Positions 2,860 through 64,000 of a DNA stretch of 64,000 nt are shown here, in pieces. The translations under genes and the position numbers were made by a program. The first letter of the stretch is position 1. Every line of letters starts with the position of its first letter. The stretch spans positions 704,001-768,000 of the forward strand of contig OZ240215.1 of the NCBI GenBank assembly GCA_965197585.1, read 5' to 3'. Below the pieces are notes generated by a model. It was not told the origin of the DNA and did not search any database. It saw only the letters and a list, made by a program, of their open reading frames with translations. Source of the DNA: Dehalococcoidia bacterium. Lineage in GTDB: Bacteria; Chloroflexota; Dehalococcoidia; Plut-88900.

Positions 2860-2872
2860 GAGGCCAGACCGA

Positions 2873-4606: not shown

Positions 4607-4698
4607 GCCGGGGGTTGGGGTTGGGGTATAATCACTCGCGCCGCACGAAAATTACGCATTGACCATTTGACAGGTAGTTCAGCAGACCCGGAGGAGAT

Positions 4699-12930: not shown

Positions 12931-12952
12931 AACCACAGTTCCAGGAAGAGAG

Positions 12953-12993
12953 AAAGGGTCCGGCGGGCAATTCAACCGCCGGACCCTTTATTT
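12953..12993 (+). terminator. Intrinsic terminator after clpC
   Basis: AAAGGGTCCGGCGG..CCGCCGGACCCTTT followed by ATTT. Confidence 0.8.
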
Positions 12994-13065
12994 GTCTGTG
13001 ATATCATCGACGAGTTGCGCATTTTCCATAGTATCCCGGCCACAGGTATAGGAGAGCTTAAAGAG

Positions 13066-48544: not shown

Positions 48545-48598
48545 TCGGGGGCTCACCGGATGCCCGCAAGGAATTAGTACGTTGTCCCGGAGGGACCC

Positions 48599-49384
48599 AT
48601 GCCGCAGGTAATTTTCGAAAAAAAGGACCGGATAGCGTACCTCACCATCAACAGGCCGGAGAAGATGAATGCCCTGAACGCTGAGGTGGTGAACGGCCTG
48701 AACTCAGCCTGGCACGACATAGAGAACGATACGGATGTCTGGTGCACTATCGTGACAGGGGCGGGGGGAAGGGCGTTCTCGGCGGGCGCGGACCTGAAGG
48801 AGATGTCGGACAGGAGGAGGGGAGAGGGCAGAGGCGAGGGACTGCTGGCCGAGGTTCGGTCCATGGGGTTCTGGCGAACGAGCGACCTGACAAAACCGGT
48901 CATCGCAGCTGTGGACGGCTACTGCCTTGCCGGGGGCCTGGAACTGGCCTTGGCGTGTGACTTCATTATCGCTTCGGACAGGTCGCACTTTGGGCTTTCG
49001 GAAGTTCTCAGGGCGATCATTCCCGGGGGTGGGGGGACGCAGAGGCTGCCTCGGGCGATACCCTTTCGTAGGGCGCTGGAGGTGCTGTTGACCGGCGATC
49101 GACTCAACGCTCAGCAGGCCTACGACCTGGGTCTCGTGAACCGGGTGGTGAATCCCGAAGATGTGATGTCCACCGCCGAGGAGCTTGCAAACAAGATCAA
49201 CGCGAATGGGCCACTGGCGGTGCGGGCAATAAAGCAGCTGGCCTACCAGGGCATGGACATGCCTTTGGAGCAGGGGCTCCGGTTAGAGGAGCTGGTGTCG
49301 CAGCGGATCCACAAGACGGAGGACTCGAAGGAAGGACCTCTGGCGTTTGTGGAGAAGAGGAAGCCGAACTACAAGGGCCGGTAG
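48599..49384 (+). CDS. Enoyl-CoA hydratase/isomerase (tandem paralog)
   Basis: NRPEKMNAL, AFSAGADL, AGGLE, GGTQRLPR, AFVEKR. Confidence 0.92.
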   Translation: MPQVIFEKKDRIAYLTINRPEKMNALNAEVVNGLNSAWHDIENDTDVWCTIVTGAGGRAFSAGADLKEMSDRRRGEGRGEGLLAEVRSMGFWRTSDLTKPVIAAVDGYCLAGGLELALACDFIIASDRSHFGLSEVLRAIIPGGGGTQRLPRAIPFRRALEVLLTGDRLNAQQAYDLGLVNRVVNPEDVMSTAEELANKINANGPLAVRAIKQLAYQGMDMPLEQGLRLEELVSQRIHKTEDSKEGPLAFVEKRKPNYKGR

Positions 49385-49397
49385 GGTACACGCCGCC

Positions 49398-49631
49398 CCG
49401 CTCATACTTCGACGGGCCTATCACGAGCGAATAGTTCCGTTTGTTACTACTCTTCTGATGCCTTGACCCATTCTCACACCGCTCATACTGAGCCAAGTCG
49501 AAGGGTTGAGCGAAGCACGGCAACCCTTGTCGCTTCAATGGACCTTCCCCTCACCCCGCTCATACTTCGAGGGCCTCAGCACGAGCGGCCCCGCACCAGG
49601 ATTGGATTCTTTGGTCAAGGCCGAGAATGAC
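49398..49631. repeat. REP-like cluster between convergent genes
   Basis: Core variants at 49398-49429, about 49479-49512 and 49556-49588, plus GGATTC..GAATGAC at about 49604-49631. Confidence 0.8.
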
Positions 49632-49645
49632 GTGGAGTAGAAGCG

Positions 49646-50422
49646 CTAGGATTGCTTGATTGCAGACTCTATTTGAGGGGTGAGGTCTTGGGGTGGGGAG
49701 GGGTTGTGTGGCGTGGTTTGGATTTCGCCGCGGGAGAGGGCGGCCAGGGTCTCGACCAGAAGGGGGAGTTCCCTTTTCACGCCTTCGCTGCGTATTGCTT
49801 TGAAGAGGGGCGATTCTTCGCCGTAACGCTGGCGAATGTTGTCGAGGGAAGTTTGGGCTGCTTCTCTCCAGAGATCATCAAAGGCTGAGCCGCGGATGGG
49901 GTAGCGGCAGTAGGCGATGGTCGGGCCTTGGTCTAATTCCTCGGTGACTAGGTGAATTTTGACGCCACTGTAGTCTGTGCGCTGCTTGATTAGCTGCCAG
50001 ATGACATCCTGCCACGTTCCGTCGGGGCCGTTGGGGGCGGCGGGGTGGAGGTTGATCATTGGGAATTCTCGGCACAAGGCTGGGCTTACGATAAGCATGT
50101 AGCCGGCGAGGACGCAGAGGTCGGGTGAGAAGGGGGAGATTAGATCGGCGACTTCTCTGTCGTAGGCGGTGCGCCATTGTGTCGGGTCGCCAGTCCATTG
50201 GCGGCGAAATGCCCTCGAAGACCGGTGGATGACGGTGAGGCCGAGGGATTTAGCCAGGGCGAAGAATTGGTCGCTACCATCAGCCTCGCCCGGGGCCCGG
50301 TTGCTGAAGACGAAGCTGATTGTGGCCTGGATTCGGCCGCCGGTTATGGCTTCGTGGACGGTGGATAGGAGGGCGCGGGACCCGGGGCCGCGGCCCGTGG
50401 AGAACCAGCCGAGGTTGATCAT
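49646..50422 (-). CDS. purN: Phosphoribosylglycinamide formyltransferase
   Basis: STGRG, VFSNR, LAGYM, INLHPA, VTEELDQGP. Confidence 0.88.
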   Translation of the reverse strand: MINLGWFSTGRGPGSRALLSTVHEAITGGRIQATISFVFSNRAPGEADGSDQFFALAKSLGLTVIHRSSRAFRRQWTGDPTQWRTAYDREVADLISPFSPDLCVLAGYMLIVSPALCREFPMINLHPAAPNGPDGTWQDVIWQLIKQRTDYSGVKIHLVTEELDQGPTIAYCRYPIRGSAFDDLWREAAQTSLDNIRQRYGEESPLFKAIRSEGVKRELPLLVETLAALSRGEIQTTPHNPSPPQDLTPQIESAIKQS

Positions 50423-50441
50423 AGGGCCGAGGGGGTCGAGG

Positions 50442-50750
50442 CTAACCTAGGACTTCGCTGACTATGGCGACGGGCATGCCGGGCGAGTAGTAGTTGGGTA
50501 CGTCGCCAATGACCTTGGGAACTGTGGTGTCGTTCATGCCAGCGAGACGCTTTTCCTCGCTTTCGAAGTAGAGGTAGCCGATGCAGTGGATGGGGGAGTC
50601 GCTGCCGTCGGCGCCGCTGACAACGTTGTCCACGTCCCACTTGAATGCACCGAACTCGGCGGCGGCCATGGGCATGTGGGACTTGATGTAGTAATCGAGG
50701 TCGAAGGTGCTGTCTTCAGTCTTGTTATAGATGATCGCCATCCGGATCAT
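50442..50750 (-). CDS. EthD family protein
   Basis: FDLDYY..SHMP, YFES, DVPNY pattern. Confidence 0.8.
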   Translation of the reverse strand: MIRMAIIYNKTEDSTFDLDYYIKSHMPMAAAEFGAFKWDVDNVVSGADGSDSPIHCIGYLYFESEEKRLAGMNDTTVPKVIGDVPNYYSPGMPVAIVSEVLG

Positions 50751-50786
50751 GGTAGCCGCCTTTCCTGTATGGGTCGTTAGGAAGAG

Positions 50787-51425
50787 CTATTCCCAAATCT
50801 CGACTTTGAGGCGCTTGTTGCCCTGTTCGTCGCCGTCACCGTTGACGAAGGAGACGTCGCCGGCGGGGCAGGCGGAGAGGCCGACTAAGCAGTCCATCTC
50901 CGCGCGCATGTCGATGTAGCCGCCCTTGCCTGCGGCGGGGGCGTGGATGTGGTATCGACCTTCCTGGTCGTAGGTGACATTCATGAACATGTTGAAGACG
51001 TCGGGTACGTCCTCGGGGGTGATGCCGTGGGGCTCTAGGGCCTCCACGAGGTTGCCAAAGCAGCTACGGTGTCCGCCCTCTATGTTCCACACCTCGTATC
51101 GCTGGGGGGTGCACTTGGCCCCAATCATGGTCCAATGTAAGCCGACTGTGTCCTCGACGGTGGTGAACATAACGTTGAGGTGAGGGGGTCGGGAGTAGAA
51201 GTCCCGTACGCCATTGATTCCACCCGTGCCCTTGGCGCTGTTCATGACGAAGGTGTGGGACGAGTCGTAGTGCTCCTTGAAATTGTTGGCGTTGAAGGCC
51301 GTCCAGTCGCCGACCTGGGGGCCATCGATCATTATGACCCGCTGGATTTGACCCTTCTTCACATAGTAGGCGGCACCGTACTCTGCCGGAATCATTATCT
51401 CCTGGACCAGCTTACGTCCTTCCAT
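50787..51425 (-). CDS. DUF1989 / urea carboxylase-associated family protein
   Basis: GPQVGD, EDTVG.H, H.SC..NL, DVFN.FMN, RAEMD..VGLSACP. Confidence 0.85.
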   Translation of the reverse strand: MEGRKLVQEIMIPAEYGAAYYVKKGQIQRVIMIDGPQVGDWTAFNANNFKEHYDSSHTFVMNSAKGTGGINGVRDFYSRPPHLNVMFTTVEDTVGLHWTMIGAKCTPQRYEVWNIEGGHRSCFGNLVEALEPHGITPEDVPDVFNMFMNVTYDQEGRYHIHAPAAGKGGYIDMRAEMDCLVGLSACPAGDVSFVNGDGDEQGNKRLKVEIWE

Positions 51426-51455
51426 GTCTGCTCCTCCCCTGCCGGATTCTGTTTC

Positions 51456-52013
51456 CTAGACCCGCTCCTGATATTCGCCGGTGCGGGTGTCTACCTTAAT
51501 GGTGTCATCTTCGTTGACGAATAGCGGGACGTTGACGGTTAGGCCCGTTTCGAGGGTGGCGGGCTTGGTGCCGCCCTGGGCGGTGTCACCCTTGTAGCCG
51601 GGATCGGTCTCGGTGACGCGGAGGTCGACGGTGGTGGGCAGTTCGACGCCAATGGGAACTTCACCGTGGAGAATAAGATCGAGAGTCATTCCTTCAAGGA
51701 GGTAGCCCACGACATCCTCGACGAGCTCATGGGAGACGGGTGACTGCTCGAAGGTGTCGGTGTACATGAAATAGAAGAGGTCACCGTCACGGTATAGGAA
51801 CTGGGCCTCCTGCCGTTCGAGCCGTGCGACGGCGAAGCGTTCTCCGGCCTGGAAGGTGCGTTCGATGGTGTGGCCTTCGGTGATGTTGCGTATCTTCATC
51901 CTGACCTGGGCCGAGCCTCGGGCGATCTTGATGTGCTTGAGCATAAGAATCTTGTAGAGGCTGCCATCGAGCTCTATGGTCATGCCCTTCTTGATAGCTC
52001 CGGTCTCAATCAT
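51456..52013 (-). CDS. efp: Elongation factor P
   Basis: PG.KGDTA.GG.KPA.LETG, VPLF, KVDTR.GEY..R. Confidence 0.96.
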   Translation of the reverse strand: MIETGAIKKGMTIELDGSLYKILMLKHIKIARGSAQVRMKIRNITEGHTIERTFQAGERFAVARLERQEAQFLYRDGDLFYFMYTDTFEQSPVSHELVEDVVGYLLEGMTLDLILHGEVPIGVELPTTVDLRVTETDPGYKGDTAQGGTKPATLETGLTVNVPLFVNEDDTIKVDTRTGEYQERV

Positions 52014-52022
52014 GAACGCACC

Positions 52023-53123
52023 TCAATTGTTGGCGGAGCGGATTCCCTTGGGGGTCTTGGTAATGACCCGCACCTTGCCGTTTTCCAAGACTACCATGTC
52101 TTCGATTCTAACGCCGCCCCAGCCGGGGATGTATATGCCGGGTTCTATGGTGAATACCATGTCCTTCCCGAGTACGCTGCTGCCCCGGGGCCCGACAACG
52201 GGAACTTCATGAACCGCCAAGCCTATGCCGTGGCCGAGGGAGTGTCCGAAGCGTTCGCCGTAGCCGGCGTCATCGATAACGGCGCGGGCCAGGGCGTCGG
52301 CCTCGTGGCCGGTCATGCCGGAGCGTACGGCGTCGATGGCGTTGAGTTGGGCGTCCAGCACGGTGTTGTAAACCTTGTCCATCTGTTCATCTGCGGTACC
52401 GACAACTATTGTGCGGGTGATGTCGCTGCAGTAGCCGTTGATTCTGGCGCCCATATCGATGACCACGGGTTCGCCGGACTGGATGGCTTTATCGGAGGGG
52501 CGGTGGTGGGGGAGTGCGCCGTTGGGGCCCGAGGCGACGATGGTGTCGAAGCTGATGGAGTCGGCCCCGGCGTCACGCATGGCTTTTTCGAGCTCCCAAG
52601 CGACCTGCTTCTCGGTCATGCCGGGCTCGATGGCCGGGACCACCTGGGCTAGGGCCTGGTCTGCGAAGGATGCGGCCCTGCCGATCTCGGCGATTTCGTC
52701 GGATCCCTTTACTTCCCGCAGGGTCTCGACCAAACCGCGGGTGGACATGAGGCGGGGGCGCTCCTCGGAAGGAAGGTCGGCGATGGAGCGTTTTATGGCC
52801 GAGTAGAAGCTGAAAGATACGTCGGATGCTTCGAAACCGAGGCGTCGGGGCTTGATCTCGGCGAGGGCCTCGTGGAACCAGCCGAAGGGTTTGGGCCCTG
52901 CCATCTTGAGCAGCGTGTAGTCGGGGCACTGGCGGGCGGACTGCTCGTAGTAGCGGAAGTCGGTGGCGATAAAGGCGTGGTCCCGGGAGATGATGAGAAA
53001 GCCGGCCGAGCCGCTAAACCCCGAGAGATAGAAGCGGTTCTCGGGTTGCGATATCAGGAGGGCATCGAGACCCTCAGCTTCGAGCTTTCTTCTGAGCTTT
53101 TGCGTTCTTTCCAATGCGCTCAT
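52023..53123 (-). CDS. Xaa-Pro aminopeptidase (M24)
   Basis: YLSGFSG, TDFRY, GYCSDITRT, HSLGHGIGL.VHE, TIEPGIY, GVRIED. Confidence 0.93.
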   Translation of the reverse strand: MSALERTQKLRRKLEAEGLDALLISQPENRFYLSGFSGSAGFLIISRDHAFIATDFRYYEQSARQCPDYTLLKMAGPKPFGWFHEALAEIKPRRLGFEASDVSFSFYSAIKRSIADLPSEERPRLMSTRGLVETLREVKGSDEIAEIGRAASFADQALAQVVPAIEPGMTEKQVAWELEKAMRDAGADSISFDTIVASGPNGALPHHRPSDKAIQSGEPVVIDMGARINGYCSDITRTIVVGTADEQMDKVYNTVLDAQLNAIDAVRSGMTGHEADALARAVIDDAGYGERFGHSLGHGIGLAVHEVPVVGPRGSSVLGKDMVFTIEPGIYIPGWGGVRIEDMVVLENGKVRVITKTPKGIRSANN

Positions 53124-53135
53124 AGTGTGCCTATC

Positions 53136-53576
53136 CTAACCGCTTTTCTTAAGGGAGTCGACGAGCAAGTCGAGGGCCGAGAGATAACCCCTCCAGCCCT
53201 GACCGGCGATCTGCCCCCTGGCGATGGGAGCAATGACGGATACGGAGCGAAACTGCTCACGGGCGTGGATGTTGGATAGATGGACTTCGATAATTGGGAG
53301 GGCGGTGTCGGCGAGGGCATCCCGGAGGGAGAGGCCGTAATGGGTGAGGGCGCCGGGATTGATGACTATGCCGTCGGCGTTTTCGGACTCGGCCTGGAGG
53401 AAGTCGATAATTGTGCCTTCGTGGTTGGACTGAAAGAAAGATACGTCTGTGCCGAGTTCGGAGGCGCGGGTGGAAACGGCGGTCTCGATGTCGGCGAGGG
53501 TAGTCGTCCCGTACTGGGACGGGTCCCGCTTGCCGAGACGGTTCAGATTGGGGCCGTTTACTACCAGTATTCTCAT
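53136..53576 (-). CDS. aroQ: Type II 3-dehydroquinate dehydratase
   Basis: NGPNLN.LG.R...YG, QSNHEG, NPGALTH, EVHLSN..ARE.FR. Confidence 0.96.
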   Translation of the reverse strand: MRILVVNGPNLNRLGKRDPSQYGTTTLADIETAVSTRASELGTDVSFFQSNHEGTIIDFLQAESENADGIVINPGALTHYGLSLRDALADTALPIIEVHLSNIHAREQFRSVSVIAPIARGQIAGQGWRGYLSALDLLVDSLKKSG

Positions 53577-54535
53577 TCAGAATCTTTGGAGGCTTGGGCC
53601 CTGGGATGGGCCTTTTCGTAAGTCTTGCGGGTCTCGGCGGTGGTCATGTGGGTGTAGATCTGGGTCGTGCCGAGGCTCTCGTGGCCAAGGAGCTCCTGCA
53701 CTACACGGAGGTCGGCGCCGCCATCCAACAGGTGAGTAGCGAAGCTGTGGCGGAGAGTGTGGGGATGGGCGGGCTCGAGGAGACCCCTCTCAAGAGAGTA
53801 CTTACGGACAAGTGTCTGGACGCTTCGGACGGAGAGCCGACCGCCACTGTTGTTGAGGAAGAGGGCTCGGTTCTTGGCGTTGGTTGAAAGTTGAGGTCTG
53901 CCGTGGGAGAGGTAGCGGGCTATGGCATCAAGGGCCTGCTTCCCGACCACGACGTCCCGCTCCTTGGAACCCTTGCCCAGGACCCGGAGTTCGCGGTTGC
54001 CATCGGCCACATCATCGGTGTCCAGGCTTACTACTTCGCTGACTCGGAGGCCGGTGGCGTAGATCAACTCCAGAAGGGCGCGGTCCCGCAGCCCGAGGGG
54101 GGTGGGGTCAAGGGGGGCCTCTACGAGGGCGGAAGCATCCTGAGGAGACAGGAACTTGGGAAACTTCCTGTCGAGTTTGGGGAGGCGGAGCCGGGCCACG
54201 GGGTTGGTATCGAGCCAGCCTTCTCTTACGAGAAATCGGTAGAAGGTGCGGAGCACGCTTATCTTGCGGGCCACGCTCCGCATGTCGTGGCCGTGCTTAA
54301 CCTGGTTGTTGGTGACCTGGATGCTGCGCTCGGTGGTGAGCCATGCGACGTACTTCCTCAGGAGATTCTTGATCTCCTTGCCGCCTACTTCTGCCAGGTC
54401 ATATATCCCGGTGTCTTCCAGGAAGTCGAAATAGGAATTGAGGTCCGTCCGGTAGTTGCGCACGGTGTAGGAGGAGAGGTTGCGCTCCCCTTCCAGGTAC
54501 CGGATGAATTTGTTGAGATACTGGTAGTGTTCCAA
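53573..54535 (-). CDS. xerC: Tyrosine recombinase XerC/XerD
   Basis: YATGLRVSE, GKGSKER, HTLRHSFATH, LLGH, TTQIYTH; dprA-topA-xerC synteny. Confidence 0.9.
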   Translation of the reverse strand: MEHYQYLNKFIRYLEGERNLSSYTVRNYRTDLNSYFDFLEDTGIYDLAEVGGKEIKNLLRKYVAWLTTERSIQVTNNQVKHGHDMRSVARKISVLRTFYRFLVREGWLDTNPVARLRLPKLDRKFPKFLSPQDASALVEAPLDPTPLGLRDRALLELIYATGLRVSEVVSLDTDDVADGNRELRVLGKGSKERDVVVGKQALDAIARYLSHGRPQLSTNAKNRALFLNNSGGRLSVRSVQTLVRKYSLERGLLEPAHPHTLRHSFATHLLDGGADLRVVQELLGHESLGTTQIYTHMTTAETRKTYEKAHPRAQASKDSE

Positions 54536-54550
54536 GGTTGTGGCTCGGGG

Positions 54551-57001
54551 CTAGGCGGGTACGGGTTCCTCGGCGGCTTTAGGGGCAGCGTAGGGCTTGG
54601 CGTTCTTGCATTTCGGGTAGCCGGTGCAGGCTATGAAGCGGCCTCGTCTGCCGGATTTTATGGCCATGGGTTTGCCGCACTTATCGCAGGACTCATCGAT
54701 TATTTCCGGCGCCTGGCGAGACTGTTCGCCCGGGAGAGGTCGGGTGTTCTTGCACTTGGGATAGGCGGTACAGGCGAGGAATTTTCCCCTACGGCCCGAT
54801 CTAATGACCATGGGACTTGCACATTTTTCGCAGGCCTCATCGGTCTTTTCCGGTTGTTCTCGTTCGTCACCCGGAAGGGGTCGGGTGTTCTTGCACTTGG
54901 GGTAGGCGGTACAGGCGAGGAATTTTCCCCTACGGCCTGATCTAACGACCATAGGGCTTTCACATTTTTCACAGACCTCATCGGTCTCTTCCGGTTGCTC
55001 GCGTTCGTCGCCGGGGAGCGGCCTGGCGTTCTTGCATTCGGGATAACCCGTGCAGGACAGGAATTTTCCGTAACGCCCGACCTTGATAACCATAGGGCGT
55101 TCGCATTTTTCGCAGAAGATGTCGGTTTCCTCGGGTTCCTGGCCGGGGAGAGGCTTAGCGTTTTTGCACTTGGGGTAGCCGCTGCAAGATAGGAAACGGC
55201 CGTTTCGCCCCGCCTTGACGGTCATAGGCTCGCCGCATTTTTCGCAGACGAGGCCGGAGGCTTCGTCGGGGATGGCCTCAGATGCTTTGTCCAAGGCCTC
55301 CTGGAAGGGGTCATAGAATTCCCGGATTACGGGGACCCATTCACGCTCACCCCTGGAAATTTCATCAAATTCCTGCTCCATCTCGGCGGTAAAGCCGAGG
55401 TTCACGATATCGGGGAAGTGCTCGTTTAGGAGGGCGTTGACGCGAAGACCCAACTCCGTTGGGTGTATCCGGCCCTTCTCCTTGCTGATGTATTTACGGT
55501 CCTGGATAGTTGAGAGGGTCGGGGCGTAGGTGCTGGGCCGACCAATACCGTTCTCCTCCAGGGCCTTGATGAGAGAGGCTTCGGTGTAGCGGGGGGGAGG
55601 CTGTGTGAAATGCTGTTTCTGTTGAAGGGCCAGGAATTCCAGGGACTCGCCGGGGGAGAGTTCTGGGAGGGGTGGCTGCTTTTCGCTATCGGCTGTATCG
55701 TCGGCGTCCTCATGATAGAGGGTCAGGAAGCCGGGGAAGGCGGTGACGGAGCCCGTGGCGCGGAAGAGGTAGGTCTCGGCCGAGCCATTGGCCTCTATGT
55801 GGGCCGTAGTCTGGTCTATGAGGGCGGAGCTCATCTGGCTGGCGACCATACGCTTCCAGATCAGTTCGTAGAGCTTCGATTGGTCGTTGCTGAGATAGGA
55901 CTTCATGGCTGCCGGGTCTCGGTAGCAGGAGGTGGGTCGGATAGCCTCATGGGCTTCCTGGGCGCCCTTGGAGCGAGCTCTGTAGGCACGGGGTGAAGTG
56001 GGCACGTAGGCGGCCCCGAACTTTTCGGAGATGTACCTACGGGCCTCGTTGCGGGCCCCGTTGGAGACGGAAGGAGAGTCGGTCCGCATGTAGGTAATGA
56101 GGCCGATCTGGCCCTCGTTGCCGACGGGGAGGCCTTCGTAGAGCTGCTGGGCCACGGCCATGGTCTTCTTTGCCGTAAACCGTAGCTTTCGACCGGCCTC
56201 CTGCTGCAGGGTGCTAGTGGTGAAAGGCGGAGAAGGGTTACGCTTGGCCTGCTTTTTGTCGACCTTGGCGACGGTGTAGGAGGCCCCTTCGAGGGCGGTG
56301 GCTATGGCTGTGCTCTGATCCTCGGCGTCTATGGAAATCTTGCCGCGTTTGCCTTTCTGGTTGTGGAGCAAGGCTCGGAATGCGGTCTTCTTTGCGGCCT
56401 TTTGCTTATTGAGGTCGGCCTCGATTGTCCAGTACTCCTTCGGGACGAAGGCGGTGACCTCCTGTTCCCGGTCGGAGACCATGCGGAGGGCGGCGGACTG
56501 GACCCGGCCCGCCGACAGGCCCTTTTCGAGCTTGCGCCAGAGCAGAGGGCTGAGCCTGTACCCGACGACTCGATCCAAGACTCGGCGGGCCTGCTGGGCA
56601 TCGACGAGGTCCATATCGATTTCACGGGGATTGTCGAACGCCTCCGTAATCGCATTCTTGGTGATTTCGTGGAAGACGACCCGTTGAACGGGCATGCCTT
56701 TGATGTTGGAAGCCTCGAGGAGGTGCCAGGAGATGGCTTCGCCTTCCCTGTCGGGGTCGGTTGCCAGGTAGACGGCATCGGCGCCCTTGGCAGCCTTTGC
56801 GAGCTTCTGGACGGTGTCCTTCTTATTCTTTGGGACTTCGTAGAAAGGTGCGAAGTCTTCGGCAACGTTGACGCCGAACCGGTATTGGGGCAGGTCCCGG
56901 ACGTGGCCTAAAGAGGCCATCACGTTGAAGTCCTTGCCCAGTATCTTTTCGATGGTCCGGGCCTTGGCGGGAGATTCTACAATTACGAGTTTTTTAGCCA
57001 T
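54551..57001 (-). CDS. topA: DNA topoisomerase I with five C-terminal zinc ribbons
   Basis: VESPAK, ATDPDREGE, SAGRVQS, ITYMRTDS, GIGRPST; start set at MAKKLV (57001). Confidence 0.98.
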   Translation of the reverse strand: MAKKLVIVESPAKARTIEKILGKDFNVMASLGHVRDLPQYRFGVNVAEDFAPFYEVPKNKKDTVQKLAKAAKGADAVYLATDPDREGEAISWHLLEASNIKGMPVQRVVFHEITKNAITEAFDNPREIDMDLVDAQQARRVLDRVVGYRLSPLLWRKLEKGLSAGRVQSAALRMVSDREQEVTAFVPKEYWTIEADLNKQKAAKKTAFRALLHNQKGKRGKISIDAEDQSTAIATALEGASYTVAKVDKKQAKRNPSPPFTTSTLQQEAGRKLRFTAKKTMAVAQQLYEGLPVGNEGQIGLITYMRTDSPSVSNGARNEARRYISEKFGAAYVPTSPRAYRARSKGAQEAHEAIRPTSCYRDPAAMKSYLSNDQSKLYELIWKRMVASQMSSALIDQTTAHIEANGSAETYLFRATGSVTAFPGFLTLYHEDADDTADSEKQPPLPELSPGESLEFLALQQKQHFTQPPPRYTEASLIKALEENGIGRPSTYAPTLSTIQDRKYISKEKGRIHPTELGLRVNALLNEHFPDIVNLGFTAEMEQEFDEISRGEREWVPVIREFYDPFQEALDKASEAIPDEASGLVCEKCGEPMTVKAGRNGRFLSCSGYPKCKNAKPLPGQEPEETDIFCEKCERPMVIKVGRYGKFLSCTGYPECKNARPLPGDEREQPEETDEVCEKCESPMVVRSGRRGKFLACTAYPKCKNTRPLPGDEREQPEKTDEACEKCASPMVIRSGRRGKFLACTAYPKCKNTRPLPGEQSRQAPEIIDESCDKCGKPMAIKSGRRGRFIACTGYPKCKNAKPYAAPKAAEEPVPA

Positions 57002-57006
57002 AAGGG

Positions 57007-58119
57007 TTACACTTGTGCAGGATAGGCAGGTCGGACTTCGCGAATCTTGATATAGCTCATTGCGCCGACCTGCTTGACTATTCCTTTCAGTTCCATCATA
57101 GCCAGAGTGCTGCTCACCGTCGATACGGGCAAGTTGCACTGGCGGGTGACTTCGTCGATGTGGATGGGTTCCCGGGACAGGAGCTTGATGAGGTCGGCCT
57201 CCGGGGCGGAGACTTCAAGCAACTCTTGCATGACGAGCTGCTCTGGGACTAGTTTGAGGTTTAGCTCTTCGAGGACATCCTCTATGCGCGTGACCAGTTT
57301 GGCCCCTTCCTGTAGCAGGCGGTTGGTGCCCCGGCTCTTGGGTGAAGTGACATTGCCGGGCACGGCGAAGACCTCCCGATTGTGCTCCAGGGCGTAGCCG
57401 GCGGTTATGAGCGCGCCGCTCTTTTCATCTGCTTCTACAACGAGGGTGCCGAGGGTGAGGCCGCTCATGATGCGATTTCGCCTGGGGAAGAAGTCGGGGC
57501 GGGGGCGGGTGTCGAGGGGGTAGTCACTGATGACCGCGCCGGACTCGGCGATCTCGTCTGCGAGGCGTTGGTGTTCGGGAGGGTAGACCATGTCGAGACC
57601 GCAGGCCTGAATGGCGAGGGTACGACCACCGGCATCAAGGGCGGCGCGGTGAGCTACGGAGTCTATGCCACGGGCCAGGCCGCTGACCACGGTAATTCCG
57701 TTGCGGGCGAGCTCTGTGGACAAGGTGAGGGCCATCTCCTTCCCGTAGGCGGTGGGCTGCCGGGACCCGATCACTGCGATGCCCCAATCGTCCTGCTCGG
57801 TGATTGCGCCGCGGACGTAGATTACGGGAGGGCGGTCGTATATCTGGTTGAGCCGGTCAGGGTAACGGGGATCGTGCCAGGTCAGGGGCTCGATGTTGCG
57901 AGCCAGGAGGTCGTACAAGACCGTATCGGGGTCGATGGCAGGGCGGCGGGACTGGATTGAGGTGATGGACCGGCTGTCTAGGCCCGCTTTCCGGAGGGCG
58001 GAGGGGCCTGCCGTCCAAGCAACTTCAAGGGAACCGAAATAGGCTTCCAGAGCAGCGTAACGGGCCCTGCCGATGCCGGGTATTCTGTTGAATGCAACCC
58101 AATACTTGAGGTCTTTCAT
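57007..58119 (-). CDS. dprA: DNA-processing protein DprA
   Basis: IAVIGSR, VSGLARGID..AH, FPRRNRIMSG, SGALITA, VFAVPG, C-terminal winged helix; start set at MKDLKYW. Confidence 0.96.
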   Translation of the reverse strand: MKDLKYWVAFNRIPGIGRARYAALEAYFGSLEVAWTAGPSALRKAGLDSRSITSIQSRRPAIDPDTVLYDLLARNIEPLTWHDPRYPDRLNQIYDRPPVIYVRGAITEQDDWGIAVIGSRQPTAYGKEMALTLSTELARNGITVVSGLARGIDSVAHRAALDAGGRTLAIQACGLDMVYPPEHQRLADEIAESGAVISDYPLDTRPRPDFFPRRNRIMSGLTLGTLVVEADEKSGALITAGYALEHNREVFAVPGNVTSPKSRGTNRLLQEGAKLVTRIEDVLEELNLKLVPEQLVMQELLEVSAPEADLIKLLSREPIHIDEVTRQCNLPVSTVSSTLAMMELKGIVKQVGAMSYIKIREVRPAYPAQV

Positions 58120-58173
58120 GCGCGGCCATTCTAGCATAGGGAAATTTGGCTTCAAAATGAACGGGACGGGGAC

Positions 58174-58194
58174 TGGCGGAGAGGATGGGATTCG
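58174..58194 (-). mobile_element. att site: duplicated tRNA 3' end (tRNA-Ser-like), border of an integrative island
   Basis: Minus strand CGAATCCCATCCTCTCCGCCA = T-arm 3' half, acceptor strand, discriminator G and CCA. The rest of the tRNA is absent, and GC and gene content change to its right. Confidence 0.8.
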
Positions 58195-58630
58195 GAGTTA
58201 GCTATGATTCACCTGCAGTTGAGTGGCCGTTACCACAATCCTTACCACGTTATTGATCTAGGGCAATCACACCTACAGTTCCGCACTCGGGTATGGTATC
58301 ACGCCTTTACATTGGATAAGACCGAAGTGGCTGGGTTCGGTTTGCCCTAAGCATCGCAGTGCCAGAGTGATTGCACACCGGTCCGCTTGGAAAGTTAGAA
58401 TCTCGCTGGGCAGCGCCTAGAGCGCAGGAAAGGCCGGGATCGTCCTCGGTGACTACGAGATAGGCCGGGATGCACGACAAATCGCTAAGACCACCGGCAA
58501 GCCCTTCCGAGAGATTGAAGAGGAGACGAATAACTATGGTAACGAGGATAGAGACGCCTTCTCCGAATACAAAACTAGATAGCAAATGCATTGGGGGCGA
58601 AGTTGAGAGGCTATGAACGGCATTGGGCCA

Positions 58631-59227
58631 TCAATCGCGGAGTTGGCGACAGAGCCTTATCGACCCGTGCGTCTCTCTCCCGCGACCGGTGTAATAGTGG
58701 CCTTCAAGCCGGTCGGGAGCATCACTGACCAGGACCGCCGTACCACGGAACTGCTGCATTGTCCTGACGGATTCAGCTTTAGGCTCGTTGTCGAAAAGGT
58801 AGGTCAGTACCAAACCCTCCGGCGCGTTGGTGAGAATGGAGGCTGTCAAGCTCCAAGAGCGGGACTCGGCGGCGTAAAGACGCACTACTAATTTTGTCCA
58901 TGTTTGCTCAATCGTAACCGTAACCGGTTGAATCTTATCAAACCCCGTATAAGAACTGGCAATCGTTCCCGTCCATGTGCCCCGTAATTTCGGCACGCTG
59001 ATTAGCCGCAGCGCTCTGAGGAGCGGCCATCTCCAGAGCCAGTTGTCGAAGGCCCAATAAGAGACACCAAAAGCCAAAGCGATAGACGGGATTGGAAGCA
59101 GCCACCGCATGGGGAGGAGTTCTGAGGGTATGAGCGCGGTTGCAATCCCGGATGCTATGACGCTGGCCATAAAGAGTATTCTCACCACGAAGACGCGCTC
59201 ACGGGAGTCTATGGTGTAGTCGTGCAT
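58631..59227 (-). CDS. cap15: CBASS 2TM beta-strand-rich membrane effector (Cap15-like)
   Basis: MHDY.ID start, two hydrophobic helices, L.G.W.G, IEQTW, YLFDNEP, GHYYTGR; directly downstream of the CD-NTase. Confidence 0.85.
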   Translation of the reverse strand: MHDYTIDSRERVFVVRILFMASVIASGIATALIPSELLPMRWLLPIPSIALAFGVSYWAFDNWLWRWPLLRALRLISVPKLRGTWTGTIASSYTGFDKIQPVTVTIEQTWTKLVVRLYAAESRSWSLTASILTNAPEGLVLTYLFDNEPKAESVRTMQQFRGTAVLVSDAPDRLEGHYYTGRGRETHGSIRLCRQLRD

Positions 59228-59235
59228 CTCGATTG

Positions 59236-60129
59236 CTACCAGCCCTCATACTGCTTGACCAACGCGTTTATCATGATTCTGGCGTCACTTTCGTTCCACG
59301 AATCTGGATCGCTGTCAAACATAGGAACAGGCCTGTTTTGGCTGGAGAATCGCGATAAATCATTACCTTGCAGCCAATAGAGGGCGGATGAGTAGGCCGT
59401 TTGATACGAACCTGCCAGCAAACCGTCCGGCACGTTGTACAACAAGCACTCTATCCGATACGACTGCGCCGTGGTCGGCGCCAGGCGGCCCTCTTCCACG
59501 AGCTGGGCGCGTGCGTTCTTGAACATCCTTGTGGTCCGGCGGAACCACCAGTTTGTAGCTTTTTCCTTCTCGACGCCCTTTCGCCGGTGTAGGTGAGGGT
59601 AGCTGACGGCCCATCTGCTTTCCGTCGGCAGGTACAACCCCAAGCCTTCCATATTCTTGTAGTTGCGCAGGCCCACAAATTCCGTGTACTTGAGGTAGCG
59701 GACGGCCACCACTATGTCAACCGGAATTGCGGGCGAATCCATGACAAGTTTGAGTGTCTTCCTGCCTTCCCGAACCCGTGATTCTCCGAACACGGCAATA
59801 ACGGCTCTGAGCACGTCCCTGCGGAAACGTCTCCAGCCATAATCTTGCTTAGGAAAATTCTTGTGCAACAATTCCTTCTGAGAATCAGGTAGCCATGATC
59901 CGTCTCGTATTGGAATTGAAGTCAGTTCCGCGACGACGTCGACGTCGCTCTGGCGTCGGAGATGAGTGTTGTTCCGGTAAGAGCCTTGCAAATACGTCAT
60001 GTAGCGAACGCCTTCCGGCCATTGGTGTCGTGCCAAGGCATTGCGAATGGCGACGTGGGTATTCTTAGCCCCCTTGACCGTACCCGGTTGGGCCCAGGTC
60101 TTGAGTTGATTTTCCGGGATTGGCGTCAC
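59236..60129 (-). CDS. cGAS/DncV-like nucleotidyltransferase (CD-NTase, CdnE-like)
   Basis: QL..WA.P, YLQGSYRN.T...SDVD, third Asp in PVDIV, RMFKN, SY.IECLLYNVP; start set at GTG 60129. Confidence 0.88.
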   Translation of the reverse strand: MTPIPENQLKTWAQPGTVKGAKNTHVAIRNALARHQWPEGVRYMTYLQGSYRNNTHLRRQSDVDVVAELTSIPIRDGSWLPDSQKELLHKNFPKQDYGWRRFRRDVLRAVIAVFGESRVREGRKTLKLVMDSPAIPVDIVVAVRYLKYTEFVGLRNYKNMEGLGLYLPTESRWAVSYPHLHRRKGVEKEKATNWWFRRTTRMFKNARAQLVEEGRLAPTTAQSYRIECLLYNVPDGLLAGSYQTAYSSALYWLQGNDLSRFSSQNRPVPMFDSDPDSWNESDARIMINALVKQYEGW

Positions 60130-60449
60130 ACTAGTCCCACGCTGGCACACAACACAATAGGCTTGATTGTCTCGCGATAAGAAAGATCCCCACATATCCG
60201 AGTGGGGTTGGCCTCATGTCACTAGGTCGGACTGTACGATTTCCGGAGGTTTGTGCCCATTTAGTGATTCATTCGTTCCCGCCAAACCTCTTGCACATTC
60301 TGACCCTATTCATCGACCATGCAACAGGGCAGGACTCTATCGAGACTATCGTTCAGTTATTAGATGCGTACCTGGCCAATACATGTCTTCACGACAGTTC
60401 CCTGTCCATAAAGCAAGAATCAGATTTTGGTCCGATTTCCTGTTGGATC

Positions 60450-63029
60450 CTAAGAATTCGTAGCATATATCGAGACGATGCGCTCGGCCTCTAGATCATA
60501 TCGTTCGGCCAATTCCTTGAGTCCTGTTGCTAAACGAAAATACCCCGCATCTTCTACTTCCTCAGCCTTTCTTCTATACTGTCTCGCTAGATTGCGCTCG
60601 GGGTCACCGCTAGGGTCGATGTGGTGGGCTCCCCTAGCATTAAAGGCACCTATCACATAGCCTTCCCTCAATGATTCCGCATTCTCTTTGTTAAGGGCTG
60701 CTGCGACTGTTCGATCAATCCATAGATTGTCCGGGTCGGCGGGTGAATGGTACAGTACTTGACCCACTTGATTCAGGCCTACTTCAAGATGACCCGTCGC
60801 ATTGCATGCGGCAATTACTTGGGAAAGCCAGTCGTCGAATTGAACTGAGGATATTGAGCCATCGGGCAACATGCCCGGTGGCTTCCGCCAGCCGTTAAGA
60901 AGTTTCCATGCATTGCTAGCCAATGCTTGAGCTTCCTTGCTTGGGTTCGTACTGGGAGCAGTCTCCCCGCGAGGCCGGTACAAGAGGCGTATTATCTGGC
61001 AAAAGAACTGAGCATTGCCAGACAGTTCGCTTTCCAATGTTCTCGGCGAAGGGGACCGTCTTCCATCTAGTAGTGATACGTAAGCCCATTCAACTTTGAT
61101 CATATCCTCTCGGTTTGGTCTTTCGTCCTTTTGAAGAGCCTCTATAAGGCTTGTAATGTAGTAGAGTTCTGAAGCAGTAGGCTGTTCGTCCGAAACTGCT
61201 ATCGCGAGAAGCGTTCTGATGCTTCTGTCTACATCCAAGGTCCTCTCTCGAATGAAAGCGCCTCCGAGGCATCCTAGTGCTTCCCTGGCTCTGCCATATT
61301 GAAGGAGTTTATCCACAGCATGTCCAAAGTTTGCCTCAGCAAATCGAGTGGTCAGTGCATCATTCTGCCAGTATTCTGATTCATCGTGGCCGAGCCACTC
61401 GGTTGCACGAATCCAGGTTTCTTGGTTGAAAGGAAGACACGCTAAGAATCTGCTCAAATGCGGGACTGACCATTCGGTTCGGTTCAACTGATCCACCCAT
61501 TCCCACCCCGTTATATGCCGCCGAGTCCAGATGTAGGCTCGGATGAATTCGGACAATCCCTTGTCGTCTGTTGCCAGAAATGACGGAATCAAGAAATCGT
61601 CGATTTCGCCACCGGCCACTTCGGCTAGTGCCTTCCCTACGAAGTAAGTGGACTGCACCGCTTTTGCGAACTGCATAACCGATTCTGTCCCCCCATCAGC
61701 AAGAATCTCCCTTATCGCTTGTCTACGTTGTTCCTCTTCCACTTCATGGTCGCTTTCCCTATCCTGCAAGGCCAACACGCCACTATCAAACTTGAGCCGA
61801 TGCAACAATGTGGGGCTGGAGGGAGCAAGTTTCTCGGCTACAGTATCAACAGTCGATAACGTTTCTCGGTCCCAAACCCAGTTGGCATCTGGAAATCTTT
61901 GGTGTTTCCATACGAGCTTGGTCAACCTGTTCCAGAGCTTAAACAAGTATTCTTCATCCTCACCCGCATCCACGAGGCTTGGTAGGAAAGCTACCAAGCT
62001 CTGAAGCGGCTCCTCGGGCAAGCAGTCGAGTAGGTCAACCAACTCCAGCAGTTTACTCTTATCACCTGTTCCCACGCTGACCGCTAAATTGGCGCAAAAC
62101 AAGGTACAGTCCCAATAGTCATTGTTGGATACTCTAGGCTCCCAATCTCTTGCTACCGGATTGCGCCATTCCGGTTTGTGTGTAGGAGATCCTGTCTGTA
62201 CCTGGTCAGGCAACAGTTTGGTCAAGAGTTTCCATCCTTCGTTCGGGACTTCTTCCTGCACAGCTCTTATCGCGACCTTCCGCTTTTCTAGAGTCGCCTT
62301 AGTGTTGGGAAACCAAGGCAACAAAATACTTGTCAGAGAAGAAAGAGGCCGAGGATACCAATTGCCTCCCGAGTCCCGCTCCCCCATCTTAGCCAAGTCA
62401 ACACATACCCTGACCAAATATTCCTCATACCAACCAAGTGTTTCCATTGCCCAAAGTAAACCGTTCAAACAATACTCACCGGTGAACCCCACGGTTTCCT
62501 GAGCGAATAGCATGTCGATTGCACGGGAATCCTGATGCAGAGCCTCCTCTAGTGCCGAAAGAAACTCTTCAGGAGATGTCTCGGCCAATATGGGAAGTAG
62601 GTCCCCAAGGGTTGCCCATGAAGTCCAATCTGCCTCTGACAAGATTTCCCGTACAGCAAGGCGTGAGACATTTCCCGCTTTGTGCTGTGAGCAGTTGGTT
62701 AGCGCACTTGACTGAGTAGCCAAGAGAACTAGAGTTTCTGCTAATCCGCGTCTCAATTCGTATGAATACTTGGGTTTCTTTCCGTATGCCATTGCCGCGT
62801 ATCTTTCGGACGGGGGCAGGTCAAATTTGGGATCGGGTTCGGACAATACGTTGACGGCGAGTTCGGAAAGCATGTCGAGGTCCTCGTCAAAAATCCTCGG
62901 TCCGAGCTCCTTCCATAGGCTTATTTTGTCATTAATCTGCCAAAGCCCATTTCGAAGCGTTAGGGGCGAAGATGAGTCGTTTAGCACATCTTGTATGTCG
63001 GAGAACCAAGACGTGAGATCATTAACCAC
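60450..63029 (-). CDS. Large, predominantly helical, Trp/Leu-rich hypothetical protein (859 aa)
   Basis: Long ORF with SD AGGAGG 7 nt before GTG; 8-nt overlap with the upstream ORF; no P-loop seen. Confidence 0.85.
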   Translation of the reverse strand: MVNDLTSWFSDIQDVLNDSSSPLTLRNGLWQINDKISLWKELGPRIFDEDLDMLSELAVNVLSEPDPKFDLPPSERYAAMAYGKKPKYSYELRRGLAETLVLLATQSSALTNCSQHKAGNVSRLAVREILSEADWTSWATLGDLLPILAETSPEEFLSALEEALHQDSRAIDMLFAQETVGFTGEYCLNGLLWAMETLGWYEEYLVRVCVDLAKMGERDSGGNWYPRPLSSLTSILLPWFPNTKATLEKRKVAIRAVQEEVPNEGWKLLTKLLPDQVQTGSPTHKPEWRNPVARDWEPRVSNNDYWDCTLFCANLAVSVGTGDKSKLLELVDLLDCLPEEPLQSLVAFLPSLVDAGEDEEYLFKLWNRLTKLVWKHQRFPDANWVWDRETLSTVDTVAEKLAPSSPTLLHRLKFDSGVLALQDRESDHEVEEEQRRQAIREILADGGTESVMQFAKAVQSTYFVGKALAEVAGGEIDDFLIPSFLATDDKGLSEFIRAYIWTRRHITGWEWVDQLNRTEWSVPHLSRFLACLPFNQETWIRATEWLGHDESEYWQNDALTTRFAEANFGHAVDKLLQYGRAREALGCLGGAFIRERTLDVDRSIRTLLAIAVSDEQPTASELYYITSLIEALQKDERPNREDMIKVEWAYVSLLDGRRSPSPRTLESELSGNAQFFCQIIRLLYRPRGETAPSTNPSKEAQALASNAWKLLNGWRKPPGMLPDGSISSVQFDDWLSQVIAACNATGHLEVGLNQVGQVLYHSPADPDNLWIDRTVAAALNKENAESLREGYVIGAFNARGAHHIDPSGDPERNLARQYRRKAEEVEDAGYFRLATGLKELAERYDLEAERIVSIYATNS

Positions 63030-63984
63030 AGGTGTACCTCCTAGAGCGTAGAGCCATTGCCCGAACGACCTCTAAGTCAGCCTCGTTGTTTTCGTCCCAT
63101 GCTCCCAGGAGAAGAGCCTTCACGAGCGAAGCCGCCTTGGAATGCTGGTTCCAATCTGTAACAATTTTGAGTTGCTGTCCGGTTGATGTCGCAAAAATGC
63201 TCGTAACAGTCTTCTTAGGTCTGAAGGCATCAATCAGATGCTGTGGCAATTTTTCTCGGCTAATTGTTCCCGCATCCTGATTCCACGTCTGAACGAGTTC
63301 CACTATTGCACCCCAGACCTGCTCGGGTGAACCAACTTCATATTGGGAGAAATGGGAGAATATAAGAGGCAACGTAGTTCCGTCGTCGCTACCAAGGTCA
63401 TAGCAGAGCAGATCAAGATGTCGAAGGAATGAGTACAAATCCTCGCACCCGACACTAAGGTGTGCTTGGAAGGCTGCCAGCCTGGCACGTTTAGAATTAC
63501 TGCTAAAATTGGCTTTTCCTACGTGCCTATAAAACTCAGCGTGGTCTGCCGTGTGCCTAGCTTGTCTCAGTAACCAAACAACGTCGTGCTCATTTGTTCC
63601 CTTCAGATGACCTGTGATCAATGCAATTCGATCCTGCCCTTTCTGGAAAAGATCATGGTTGTTGAAATCCTTCCAAGCGGCTTGGATGGATTTGCCAAAG
63701 GTTTGGTCCCCTTTAGTAAAGCTCACGTCGTGTTTAATTTGAGCGATTAGCTTCCTAGTGGTCCTATCTAGAGGCTCTTCTACAACTACTAGGACGTCAT
63801 CCGTGTCGAACCCCTCTACCTTGTTTTGTAGTTTTATCTCCTTAATCGGCCAAGGCGGCAGGCTTGGTGCCACCCCGCCCGAGAGCATTAGAGCGACGAA
63901 CATGGCCTGGATGTGAGCTTCAAAGTGAGGTCCGCCTCCACCAGTGGAAAAGGGATTACTCAGTTGTGCGGCTTGCTGATTCAT
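63022..63984 (-). CDS. Putative PD-(D/E)xK restriction-endonuclease-like protein
   Basis: STGGGG.HFE helix, TDDVLV and AQIK (D..QxK) motifs as in Mrr/Cap4-type nucleases. Confidence 0.7.
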   Translation of the reverse strand: MNQQAAQLSNPFSTGGGGPHFEAHIQAMFVALMLSGGVAPSLPPWPIKEIKLQNKVEGFDTDDVLVVVEEPLDRTTRKLIAQIKHDVSFTKGDQTFGKSIQAAWKDFNNHDLFQKGQDRIALITGHLKGTNEHDVVWLLRQARHTADHAEFYRHVGKANFSSNSKRARLAAFQAHLSVGCEDLYSFLRHLDLLCYDLGSDDGTTLPLIFSHFSQYEVGSPEQVWGAIVELVQTWNQDAGTISREKLPQHLIDAFRPKKTVTSIFATSTGQQLKIVTDWNQHSKAASLVKALLLGAWDENNEADLEVVRAMALRSRRYTCG

Positions 63985-64000
63985 GCCCTTTACAGAGTGA

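Follow-up and report, generated by a model that had tools for sequence, protein, structure and literature searches.

Defence nucleases of the Cap4, LmuA, HamA and Avs3 type are switched on by oligomerisation. Among the described systems that come closest to the locus considered here, Avs8, which is the same as PD-lambda-4, belongs to the antiviral STAND receptors and recognises the major capsid protein of phages; the Avs7 sensor, which senses the same protein, is also found in proteins that lack a STAND NTPase, such as Dsr1 (PMC13581612). Back-up nucleases are reported to be embedded in bacteriophage exclusion (BREX) loci (PMC12839542). Here, a pair of overlapping genes, termed ORF1 and ORF2 (ORF, open reading frame), is described from a Dehalococcoidia bacterium (GCA_965197585.1, contig OZ240215.1, positions 704,001 to 768,000); this whole stretch of 64,000 nucleotides (nt) is called the window. 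Together, ORF1 and ORF2 correspond to one member, naturally divided in two, of a large and unnamed family of probable immune proteins that are usually single chains. In these proteins, a killer domain that varies between members stands at the N-terminus and is joined by a short linker to a conserved helical module of ~900 amino acids (aa).

The elements of the pair, in window coordinates, are the following:

63984..63022, minus strand: ORF1, ATG start, 320 aa; the effector half, composed of nuclease head, linker and two helices of the module.
63029..60450, minus strand: ORF2, GTG start, 859 aa; the conserved alpha-solenoid module, a putative sensor or regulator without a P-loop.
63211..63951, minus strand: Cap4/DUF4297-type PD-(D/E)xK nuclease domain, ORF1 residues 12-258, with putative catalytic residues E22, D62/D63 and Q82-x-K84.
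63160..63201, minus strand: low-confidence linker, ORF1 residues 262-275, with a predicted local distance difference test score (pLDDT) below 50; the true border between variable head and conserved module.
63040..63159, minus strand: ORF1 tail with two helices, residues 276-315; the module begins with this piece, which is also the predicted docking element for ORF2.
63027..63051, minus strand: 25 nt without counterpart in fused homologues, which carry the Shine-Dalgarno (SD) sequence, a 7-nt spacer and the GTG, and put ORF2 in the +1 frame.
63042..63037, minus strand: SD sequence AGGAGG, 7 nt ahead of the ORF2 GTG (63029..63027).
63029..63022, minus strand: ORF1/ORF2 overlap of 8 nt, GTGGTTAA, comprising the ORF2 start and the ORF1 stop.

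The two ORFs, the 8-nt overlap and the AGGAGG ahead of the second start, from which a preliminary description of the locus had set out, are all present in the sequence. In the gene calls of the protein collection, ORF1 starts nine codons earlier, beyond the window edge, which gives a protein of 329 aa; close ORF1 homologues begin at the ATG of the window.

A search with ORF2 retrieved 159 proteins, and BLASTP of the best 120 returned many proteins of ~1180 aa that match ORF1 and then ORF2, their first ~320 residues being 39-54% identical to ORF1. For example, residues 1-321 of P0012 correspond to ORF1 1-311 and residues 324-1177 to ORF2 4-853. The fused homologues mentioned in the preliminary description are hereby confirmed as single proteins. 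Within the best 80 genome loci (76 with both parts), 73 of 76 are continuous across the junction, while L059 and L066 are split there and L063 is interrupted by a stop beyond it; the 73 include L065 and L074, which shift frame in the middle of the gene. Metagenomes contributed 73 loci (66 complete), 63 of which are fused, with L131 and L161 split at the junction and L152 slightly later. With 136 uninterrupted junctions among the 142 complete loci from genomes and metagenomes, the fused gene is the rule. Of the two-gene module originally proposed, what stands is the fission of a usually fused protein, and the locus is better understood as a split single-gene system. Decayed copies of the fused gene, or long-read assembly errors in it, were observed in L063 (in-frame stop at ~9713), L065 (frame change at ~9812-9878) and L074 (frame change at ~9806).

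The junction itself was compared between split and fused forms. In 45 fused proteins it reads ...EADLEVICQLA-NEDYATW..., and in the window ORF1 ends with ...EADLEVVRAMA followed by LRSRRYTCG and the stop, with ORF2 beginning M-VNDLTSW.... The 25 nt without counterpart are located between the codons of ORF1 A311 and ORF2 V2, and these additional nucleotides, which bring both an SD sequence and a start codon, are more than a slip by one base. In other lineages the split is displaced by a few residues and has overlapping starts of its own, namely ATGGATTATAA in L059 and L066, ATGGAATATAA in L131 and GTGGAGATTAG in L161, each preceded by a purine-rich run. In one more split lineage, ORF1 ends with ...GAWNEK and the second gene begins ~19 residues earlier. 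All five junction splits seen as DNA (the window, L059, L066, L131 and L161) are in the +1 frame. Programmed +1 frameshifting was considered and ruled out, because an SD-like purine run is located 7 nt before the ATG or GTG each time and no slippery codon precedes the stop.

The split state has also been retained during divergence. In a tree of 119 module sequences, ORF2 belongs to an 11-row clade without any fused member, in which identity falls to as little as 46% (support of 99 in the Shimodaira-Hasegawa-like approximate likelihood ratio test), and the stand-alone state requires at least 11 changes on this tree. ORF1-like proteins of 295-326 aa are recorded on contigs equal in size (10957, 371172, 13785, 4941 and 4770 nt) to those of ORF2 relatives; judged by these equal contig sizes, they would be the partner genes of the stand-alone relatives, and partners of 316-321 aa fall within this range. 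An ORF1 homologue of 466 aa with 60% identity and an extra PF20215 region (P0129) is encoded on a contig of 788717 nt, the same size as that of the stand-alone ORF2 relative P0009. No close split relative was found as DNA in the same order, where 1 of 11 further genomes has a distant paralogue, in the phylum sample, where 13 of 401 genomes match at all, the source genome (G000) included, or in the Joint Genome Institute metagenomes, where the best match reaches 61%. With regard to an assembly error at the junction, which had been named as a possible objection, contigs from public sequencing runs (X1, X2) show 0 gaps and 0 other letters: one of 10,688 nt spans 60400-64000 with 0 differences, and one of 8309 nt spans 62140-64000 without gaps at the junction. 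These two large contigs may be the own data of the metagenome-assembled genome (MAG); the junction is also covered by a 151-nt piece (62904-63054) that stems from a second sample. The view of the preliminary description that the pair is maintained and does not represent an accidental frameshift therefore gains support from the 11-row split clade and from the 25-nt junction with its SD sequence and start, and the split with its own start does recur in other lineages. The split is a real, maintained fission, and the sequence suggests that ORF1 and ORF2 are translationally coupled.

ORF1 has 276 homologues of 176-560 aa. Its AlphaFold model (pLDDT 83.9) exhibits the alpha-beta-beta-beta-alpha-beta core of PD-(D/E)xK enzymes, in which E22 is placed in helix 18-34, D62/D63 before strand 64-69 and Q82-x-K84 in strand 76-84. 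The motif initially read as STGGGGxxFE...DD...QIK is present as STGGGGPHFE, TDD and QIK and is conserved in an alignment of 63 homologues, where G15, G18, F21, E22, D62, D63 and Q82 show no variation and at least 90% of the sequences have K84. In the VIA structure comparison, the best match is Avs3 (8dgc_A; Z 14.1 over 208 residues, root-mean-square deviation 3.7), followed by LmuA (Z 12.7), the HerA-associated DUF4297 protein (Z 12.7), Cap4 (Z 12.6-11.0) and HamA of Hachiman (8zue_A, Z 10.7). The twelve top matches are all Cap4-type defence nucleases, and generic restriction enzymes come next at about Z 6. These alignments cover model residues 10-258 with 172-208 residues at 9-14% identity, and Foldseek retrieved the same nuclease group (E 1e-5 to 6e-4, probability 1.00). 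The extra helical subdomain of Cap4, LmuA and Avs3 accompanies the restriction-endonuclease-like core of ORF1 in the structure match. Thus, the nuclease reading of ORF1 holds, and the head is, as modelled, a Cap4/DUF4297-type PD-(D/E)xK nuclease with putative catalytic activity. Neither SAVED nor another nucleotide-receptor domain is present in ORF1, where residues beyond 258 form just a linker and two helices and Pfam gives no SAVED match; the structural alignments of Cap4 with ORF1 end near residue 235 of the Cap4 chain.

The model of ORF2 (pLDDT 86.5, predicted template modelling score 0.65) is helical throughout, apart from a hairpin at residues 23-32. ORF2 contains no Walker A motif ([AG]xxxxGK[ST]), and the sole string of this kind, at residues 92-99 of ORF1, is not conserved, which agrees with the solenoid without a visible STAND NTPase that had been suspected. 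No Pfam or NCBIfam model matches ORF2, and PADLOC gave a marginal match to SspE alone (E 0.0093), below any cut-off. Searches of the PDB by sequence with the profiles of both ORFs returned nothing below E 0.3. ORF2 is absent from the ESM Atlas, and its homologue P0037 gave "hypothetical protein" clusters only there. Neither ORF significantly matches PADLOC-DB 2.0.0, Pfam-A or NCBIfam 20.0, so that the pair is indeed assigned to no system named there. No name for the family came up in the PDB or in full-text searches of the literature either, though supplementary tables may list it; six homologue accessions are absent from the accessible part of the supplements of PMC13581612.

A profile search against 1.84 billion representatives showed that the module family comprises 7145 clusters (50% identity) at E<=1e-3 and 4051 at E<=1e-30; 22 of the top 150 clusters are stand-alone in size. 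The heads carried by modules of the ORF2 type include the ORF1-type nuclease and nine types recognizable by Pfam (SLFN_AlbA_2, SIR2, Trypsin_2, PNP_UDP_1, Metallophos, GT4-conflict, FRG and DUF4062 among them), as well as several heads without a Pfam match. The SIR2 heads resemble those that occur as fusions with short Argonautes (PADLOC E 1e-100). The head type changes often, with 14 changes for the nuclease label on the 119-row tree. Killer heads that are exchanged on a body that stays conserved are the hallmark of an immune sensor. Module relatives were found in 38 plasmid records, and no match to the family was found in 50,697 phage records.

Signs of a remote relationship of the family to Avs8 were also seen. 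Three distant family members match the PADLOC model PD-Lambda-4_A weakly (HMMER, E 2.5e-6 to 4e-4), and hhalign aligned the broad family profile A3 (31 sequences) with two PD-lambda-4_A proteins over 762 columns (probability 90.7%, E 1.3e-6). ORF2 itself gives no match to the PADLOC PD-Lambda-4_A model. The PD-lambda-4_A controls carry GLSGVGKT, and a strict Walker A motif is found in 0 of 12 distant family members. Among proteins of 2229-5000 aa, the range covered by the search with alignment A2, no longer STAND-fused forms were found. On these sequence grounds, the ORF2 family is probably, though not securely, a remote relative of an Avs8-like receptor that lost its NTPase.

The gene break does not coincide with the border between effector and sensor. 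Proteins with AlbA_2 or trypsin heads match ORF1 only from ~250-276 to 311, and in the ORF1 model the residues 262-275, with pLDDT below 50, are followed by helices 284-294 and 301-315. As the linker is of low confidence and differently headed proteins share the ORF1 tail, the head/module border is located at ~262-275, and the gene break is situated ~45 residues inside the conserved module. Complex prediction with ORF1 262-320 and ORF2 gave ipSAE scores (an interface score) of 0.82, 0.81 and 0.82, compared to 0.00 for the best of three controls; the mark applied to this score is reached by 58 of 80 solved complexes and by 2 of 110 mismatched pairs. The predicted contacts connect ORF1 274-313 with ORF2 5-61 and 87-99, the runs agreeing in at least 90% of contacts, and the pLDDT of the partner in the predicted complex is 70-72. 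Such a docking result is expected for two halves of one domain, and the model supports a tight heterodimer without proving one. At the split, two ORF1 helices are followed by helix 5-16 and then hairpin 23-32 of ORF2; a winged helix could have this order of elements, which is a guess from the model.

The pair is located between a CBASS (cyclic-oligonucleotide-based anti-phage signalling system) locus and, past a gap of ~960 nt, a SIR2-like gene with two further genes of no assigned family. The CBASS genes are neighbours outside the system:

59236..60195, minus strand: CD-NTase of CBASS (PADLOC Cyclase, E 5e-84).
58631..59227, minus strand: Cap15-type CBASS effector with two transmembrane segments (Pfam Cap15_CD_rec, E 2.9e-26; PADLOC 2TM effector, E 2e-54).

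Both genes share the strand of the pair, as initially reported, and 254 nt separate ORF1-ORF2 from the CD-NTase. This CD-NTase reaches 214.7 bits with the NCBIfam model NF053871 "DS2_2_antiphage", whose cut-off is 350, and a text search of the literature for "DS-2" returned no paper. Immediately upstream of the window (G000:C1 ~768945-773588), locus L170 contains, all on the minus strand, a gene for a SIR2-like protein of 386 aa (1046-2206; Pfam SIR2_2 E 1.2e-5, PADLOC Aga_SIR2 E 6e-11) and genes for proteins of 394 aa (2423-3607) and 632 aa (3791-5689) without a family match; these three genes may represent an additional defence system in the same island. The gap between this trio and the pair (L170 86-1045; G000:C1 ~767985-768944) holds no ORF of at least 90 aa except for one frame of 91 aa. 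Genes for an SRAP (YedK-like) protein, a DnaE2-type polymerase III alpha subunit and two tyrosine recombinases follow 6-14 kb upstream (L170 6096-10951, minus strand, and 11656-14190, plus strand), with the integrase genes ~12-14 kb upstream, and suggest a mobile or mutagenesis cassette at the edge of the island. The island had been taken to be integrated at a tRNA gene, and this part of the preliminary description was not confirmed: ARAGORN found no tRNA in the 64-kb window and 15 kb upstream, and an Rfam scan of 48000-64000 gave zero matches, with no tRNA or attachment site seen. A scan of the locus for promoters and terminators yielded counts not above those of shuffled controls. A second pair of similar size in the window (320 aa and 862 aa, 53573-57139) was rejected as a candidate, as it encodes an XerC-like recombinase and topoisomerase I and matches in size by coincidence.

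The genomic context of the family was analyzed in 38 related loci with full flanks, whose 322 flanking ORFs were scanned against PADLOC. A PADLOC match with E<=1e-30 occurs within ~5.5 kb in 20 of the 38 loci, as a raw count with no matched control set, and the homologues thus lie in defence islands, as had been expected for a defence system. For comparison, a preprint on Schlafen genes reports a defence gene at a distance of up to 10 kb for 69.6% of them and much smaller averages for ribosomal genes (10.1101/2025.07.24.666596). In several cases, the fused gene is inserted into other defence operons: it is located between hsdS and hsdR in L007 and L038, after hsdM-hsdS in L013, and between PglX and PglZ of BREX in L019, L024, L034 and L057, the last three being related genomes. 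Thus, in 6 of 38 loci the gene is found inside the hsdS-hsdR or PglX-PglZ interval. A PD-lambda-4_A (Avs8) gene adjoins the fused homologue in two Paenibacillus genomes (L002 3957-7805, minus strand; L027 4074-7862, plus strand), which places two receptors of possible remote kinship next to each other. Other neighbours include Septu-like, Thoeris ThsB, Shedu, Zorya, type IIG restriction-modification (R-M) and AbiE genes. A CD-NTase is located directly downstream of the fused homologue on the same strand in L046 (11525-12965), L065 (11660-12586) and L074 (11655-12530), which may reflect chance within defence islands or a loose partnership.

These observations combine colinearity with fused proteins, a nuclease fold with its motif, a helical module without a P-loop, diverse heads, a defence-island context and a split that persists in a diverged clade. 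In our view, the pair probably forms a two-chain, ATP-independent sensor-effector. In this model, ORF2 would be translated from its own SD sequence and GTG, and the last two helices of ORF1 would complete the N-terminal subdomain of ORF2, resulting in a tight heterodimer equal to the fused protein. The solenoid would keep the nuclease inactive until a phage-derived protein binds. The trigger, which is a guess, could be one of the conserved structural proteins of the phage, for instance its major capsid protein, by way of the remote likeness to Avs8/PD-lambda-4 and by analogy to Dsr1 and DSR2. Binding would lead to oligomerisation of the complex, whereby the Cap4-type nuclease heads would meet, as in Avs3, Cap4 and LmuA, and the paired heads would cut DNA, so that DNA is degraded and the infection aborted with no NTP hydrolysis.

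Several points weigh against this interpretation. No Pfam nuclease model matches ORF1 at E<=0.1, the only hit being a sub-threshold one to Syd (E 0.0011), and its membership in the Cap4/DUF4297 nucleases is for this reason structural only. The fold matches of whole-chain ORF2 in Foldseek and in a wide VIA search are generic (importins, CAND1, Sec7, HEAT/ARM), with template modelling scores of at most 0.24 and a best Z of 10.1, which is under the noise level of VIA for helical repeats. Relatives at 24-28% identity, whose annotation is that of transcriptional regulators, have helix-turn-helix (HTH) heads (HTH_3, HTH_17), and the module is therefore not tied to killer domains alone. In 18 of the 38 loci, again a raw count with no matched control set, no PADLOC neighbour at 1e-30 was found. 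The link to Avs8 rests on intermediate sequences, because the narrower profile A2 matches PD-lambda-4_A at a probability of only 9-15%, though in the same register. The translation of ORF2 from the GTG is deduced from its sequence context, a capsid-type trigger is a guess by analogy, and no experimental study of any family member was found in the literature. As a side observation, many of the HTH-headed relatives are located on rhizobial plasmids, and others were found in L093, L095 and L096.

The insertion of fused homologues next to R-M and BREX genes raises the alternative that the pair guards restriction, in that the solenoid would respond to anti-restriction proteins of phages or to the condition of a BREX or type I R-M complex, like PrrC, PARIS and Ronin, and free the nuclease when restriction is blocked. 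The interval between hsdS and hsdR is indeed the place of PrrC in EcoprrI, and the guard concept itself has been put forward before (10.1101/2023.04.06.535777). However, 31 of the 38 loci, as well as the window, have no adjoining R-M or BREX partner, autonomous defence genes are also commonly embedded in R-M operons, and since L024, L034 and L057 are related genomes, few independent BREX events are represented; a guard function is thus considered unlikely. It is very improbable that ORF1-ORF2 is an accessory of the downstream CBASS, working with the CD-NTase and Cap15, for instance as a second effector or an upstream sensor. Such a role would fit the common strand and the distance of 254 nt, the cyclases directly downstream in L046, L065 and L074, and a nuclease fold that is that of Cap4, a CBASS effector. 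Yet ORF1 has no SAVED or other nucleotide receptor and matches only the nuclease part of Cap4, 35 of the 38 loci have no adjoining cyclase and two of the remaining genomes (L065 and L074) are related, the cyclases fall in different PADLOC models (00788, 00786 and 00793), and tblastn found the CD-NTase and Cap15 of the window in 0 of 153 related loci.

The proposed sensor-effector must also be weighed against two further explanations. One of them holds that the pair is a frameshifted, decaying copy of a fused gene or the product of a sequencing error, for which the prevalence of the fused form, the decayed copies among its relatives (the stop in L063 and the frame changes in L065 and L074) and the origin of the source genome as a single-contig MAG could be cited. 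This is hardly credible given that both halves are intact, that the 25 nt relative to the fused forms supply SD sequence and start, that an 11-row clade down to 46% identity retains the split and a full-length ORF2, and that the public-run contigs are gap-free at the junction, which the 151-nt piece from a second sample also spans. According to the other, the module is a general ligand-sensing scaffold, here combined with a nuclease, that serves the maintenance of mobile elements (addiction) or DNA processing. The HTH-headed relatives on rhizobial and other plasmids that are annotated as regulators, the patchy presence on plasmids (38 records), the integrases nearby and the 18 of 38 loci without a PADLOC neighbour at 1e-30 are in agreement with this idea; it is nevertheless improbable, as the heads (SIR2 of the prokaryotic Argonaute type, Schlafen, PNP, Cap4 and trypsin) are typical of immune effectors, the gene is found inside R-M and BREX operons, and the 50,697 phage records contain no match.

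If the family is immune, the 7145 clusters at 50% identity would add thousands more receptors of the Avs/Dsr1 design that need no NTPase. The natural two-gene form would be a ready-made tool, as each of the two parts can be produced, purified and mutated without the other, and it allows a direct test of how a helical sensor restrains and releases a Cap4-type nuclease and of head swapping. In addition, annotators should be aware that "hypothetical proteins" of ~320 aa and ~860 aa in this arrangement belong together and are not pseudogene fragments.

In comparison with known systems, the pair is similar to Avs8 in that both start with a nuclease head of the PD-(D/E)xK type and end in a long helical body, TPR/HEAT-like and of ~830 aa; the total length of Avs8 is 1262-1283 aa compared to 1179 aa for the pair, and the helical bodies are colinear in the match with the broad family profile. 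The pair differs from Avs8 in lacking the STAND NTPase, in an ORF2 without a beta-sheet domain, in its Cap4-type head and in its distribution over two genes. Tentatively, and with clearly less assurance than for the sensor-effector model as such, the module might be regarded as a very large, ATP-independent, Avs-like branch of receptors whose ancestor was an Avs8-like STAND receptor and which have lost the NTPase; the nuclease and the sensor would then work as two chains clipped together by the split domain, and the repeated fission at one hinge (at least 11 times) would be a route of head exchange.

In the Dsr1 form, which has no NTPase, the Avs7-type sensor module occurs with many N-terminal effectors, sometimes encoded in adjacent genes, and acts as a single-chain pattern-recognition receptor. 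The family described here shares the swappable heads and the NTPase-less design, which is a likeness of design and not membership. Fold searches of the PDB with ORF2 brought up no Dsr1 or Avs7 structure, and the SIR2-headed relative P0248 matches SIR2 models of the prokaryotic Argonaute type and not a Dsr1 model, which is presumably contained in PADLOC-DB. With the Cap4, LmuA, HamA and Avs3 nucleases, residues 12-258 of ORF1 share the fold and an E..D..QxK motif distributed over helix 1, strand 2 and strand 3, whereas ORF1 has no SAVED, SMC, helicase or STAND partner domain; the SAVED/CARF-type receptor of CBASS Cap4 proper in particular was not found in ORF1. Fused homologues fill the hsdS-hsdR and PglX-PglZ junctions in the manner of PrrC/RloC, BrxU and PARIS, but no relation in sequence or fold exists to these proteins, and the copy in the window is located outside R-M and BREX operons. 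Avs, Dsr1 and DSR2 already show this design; the new elements are the module as such and the fact that it has repeatedly been split within a domain.

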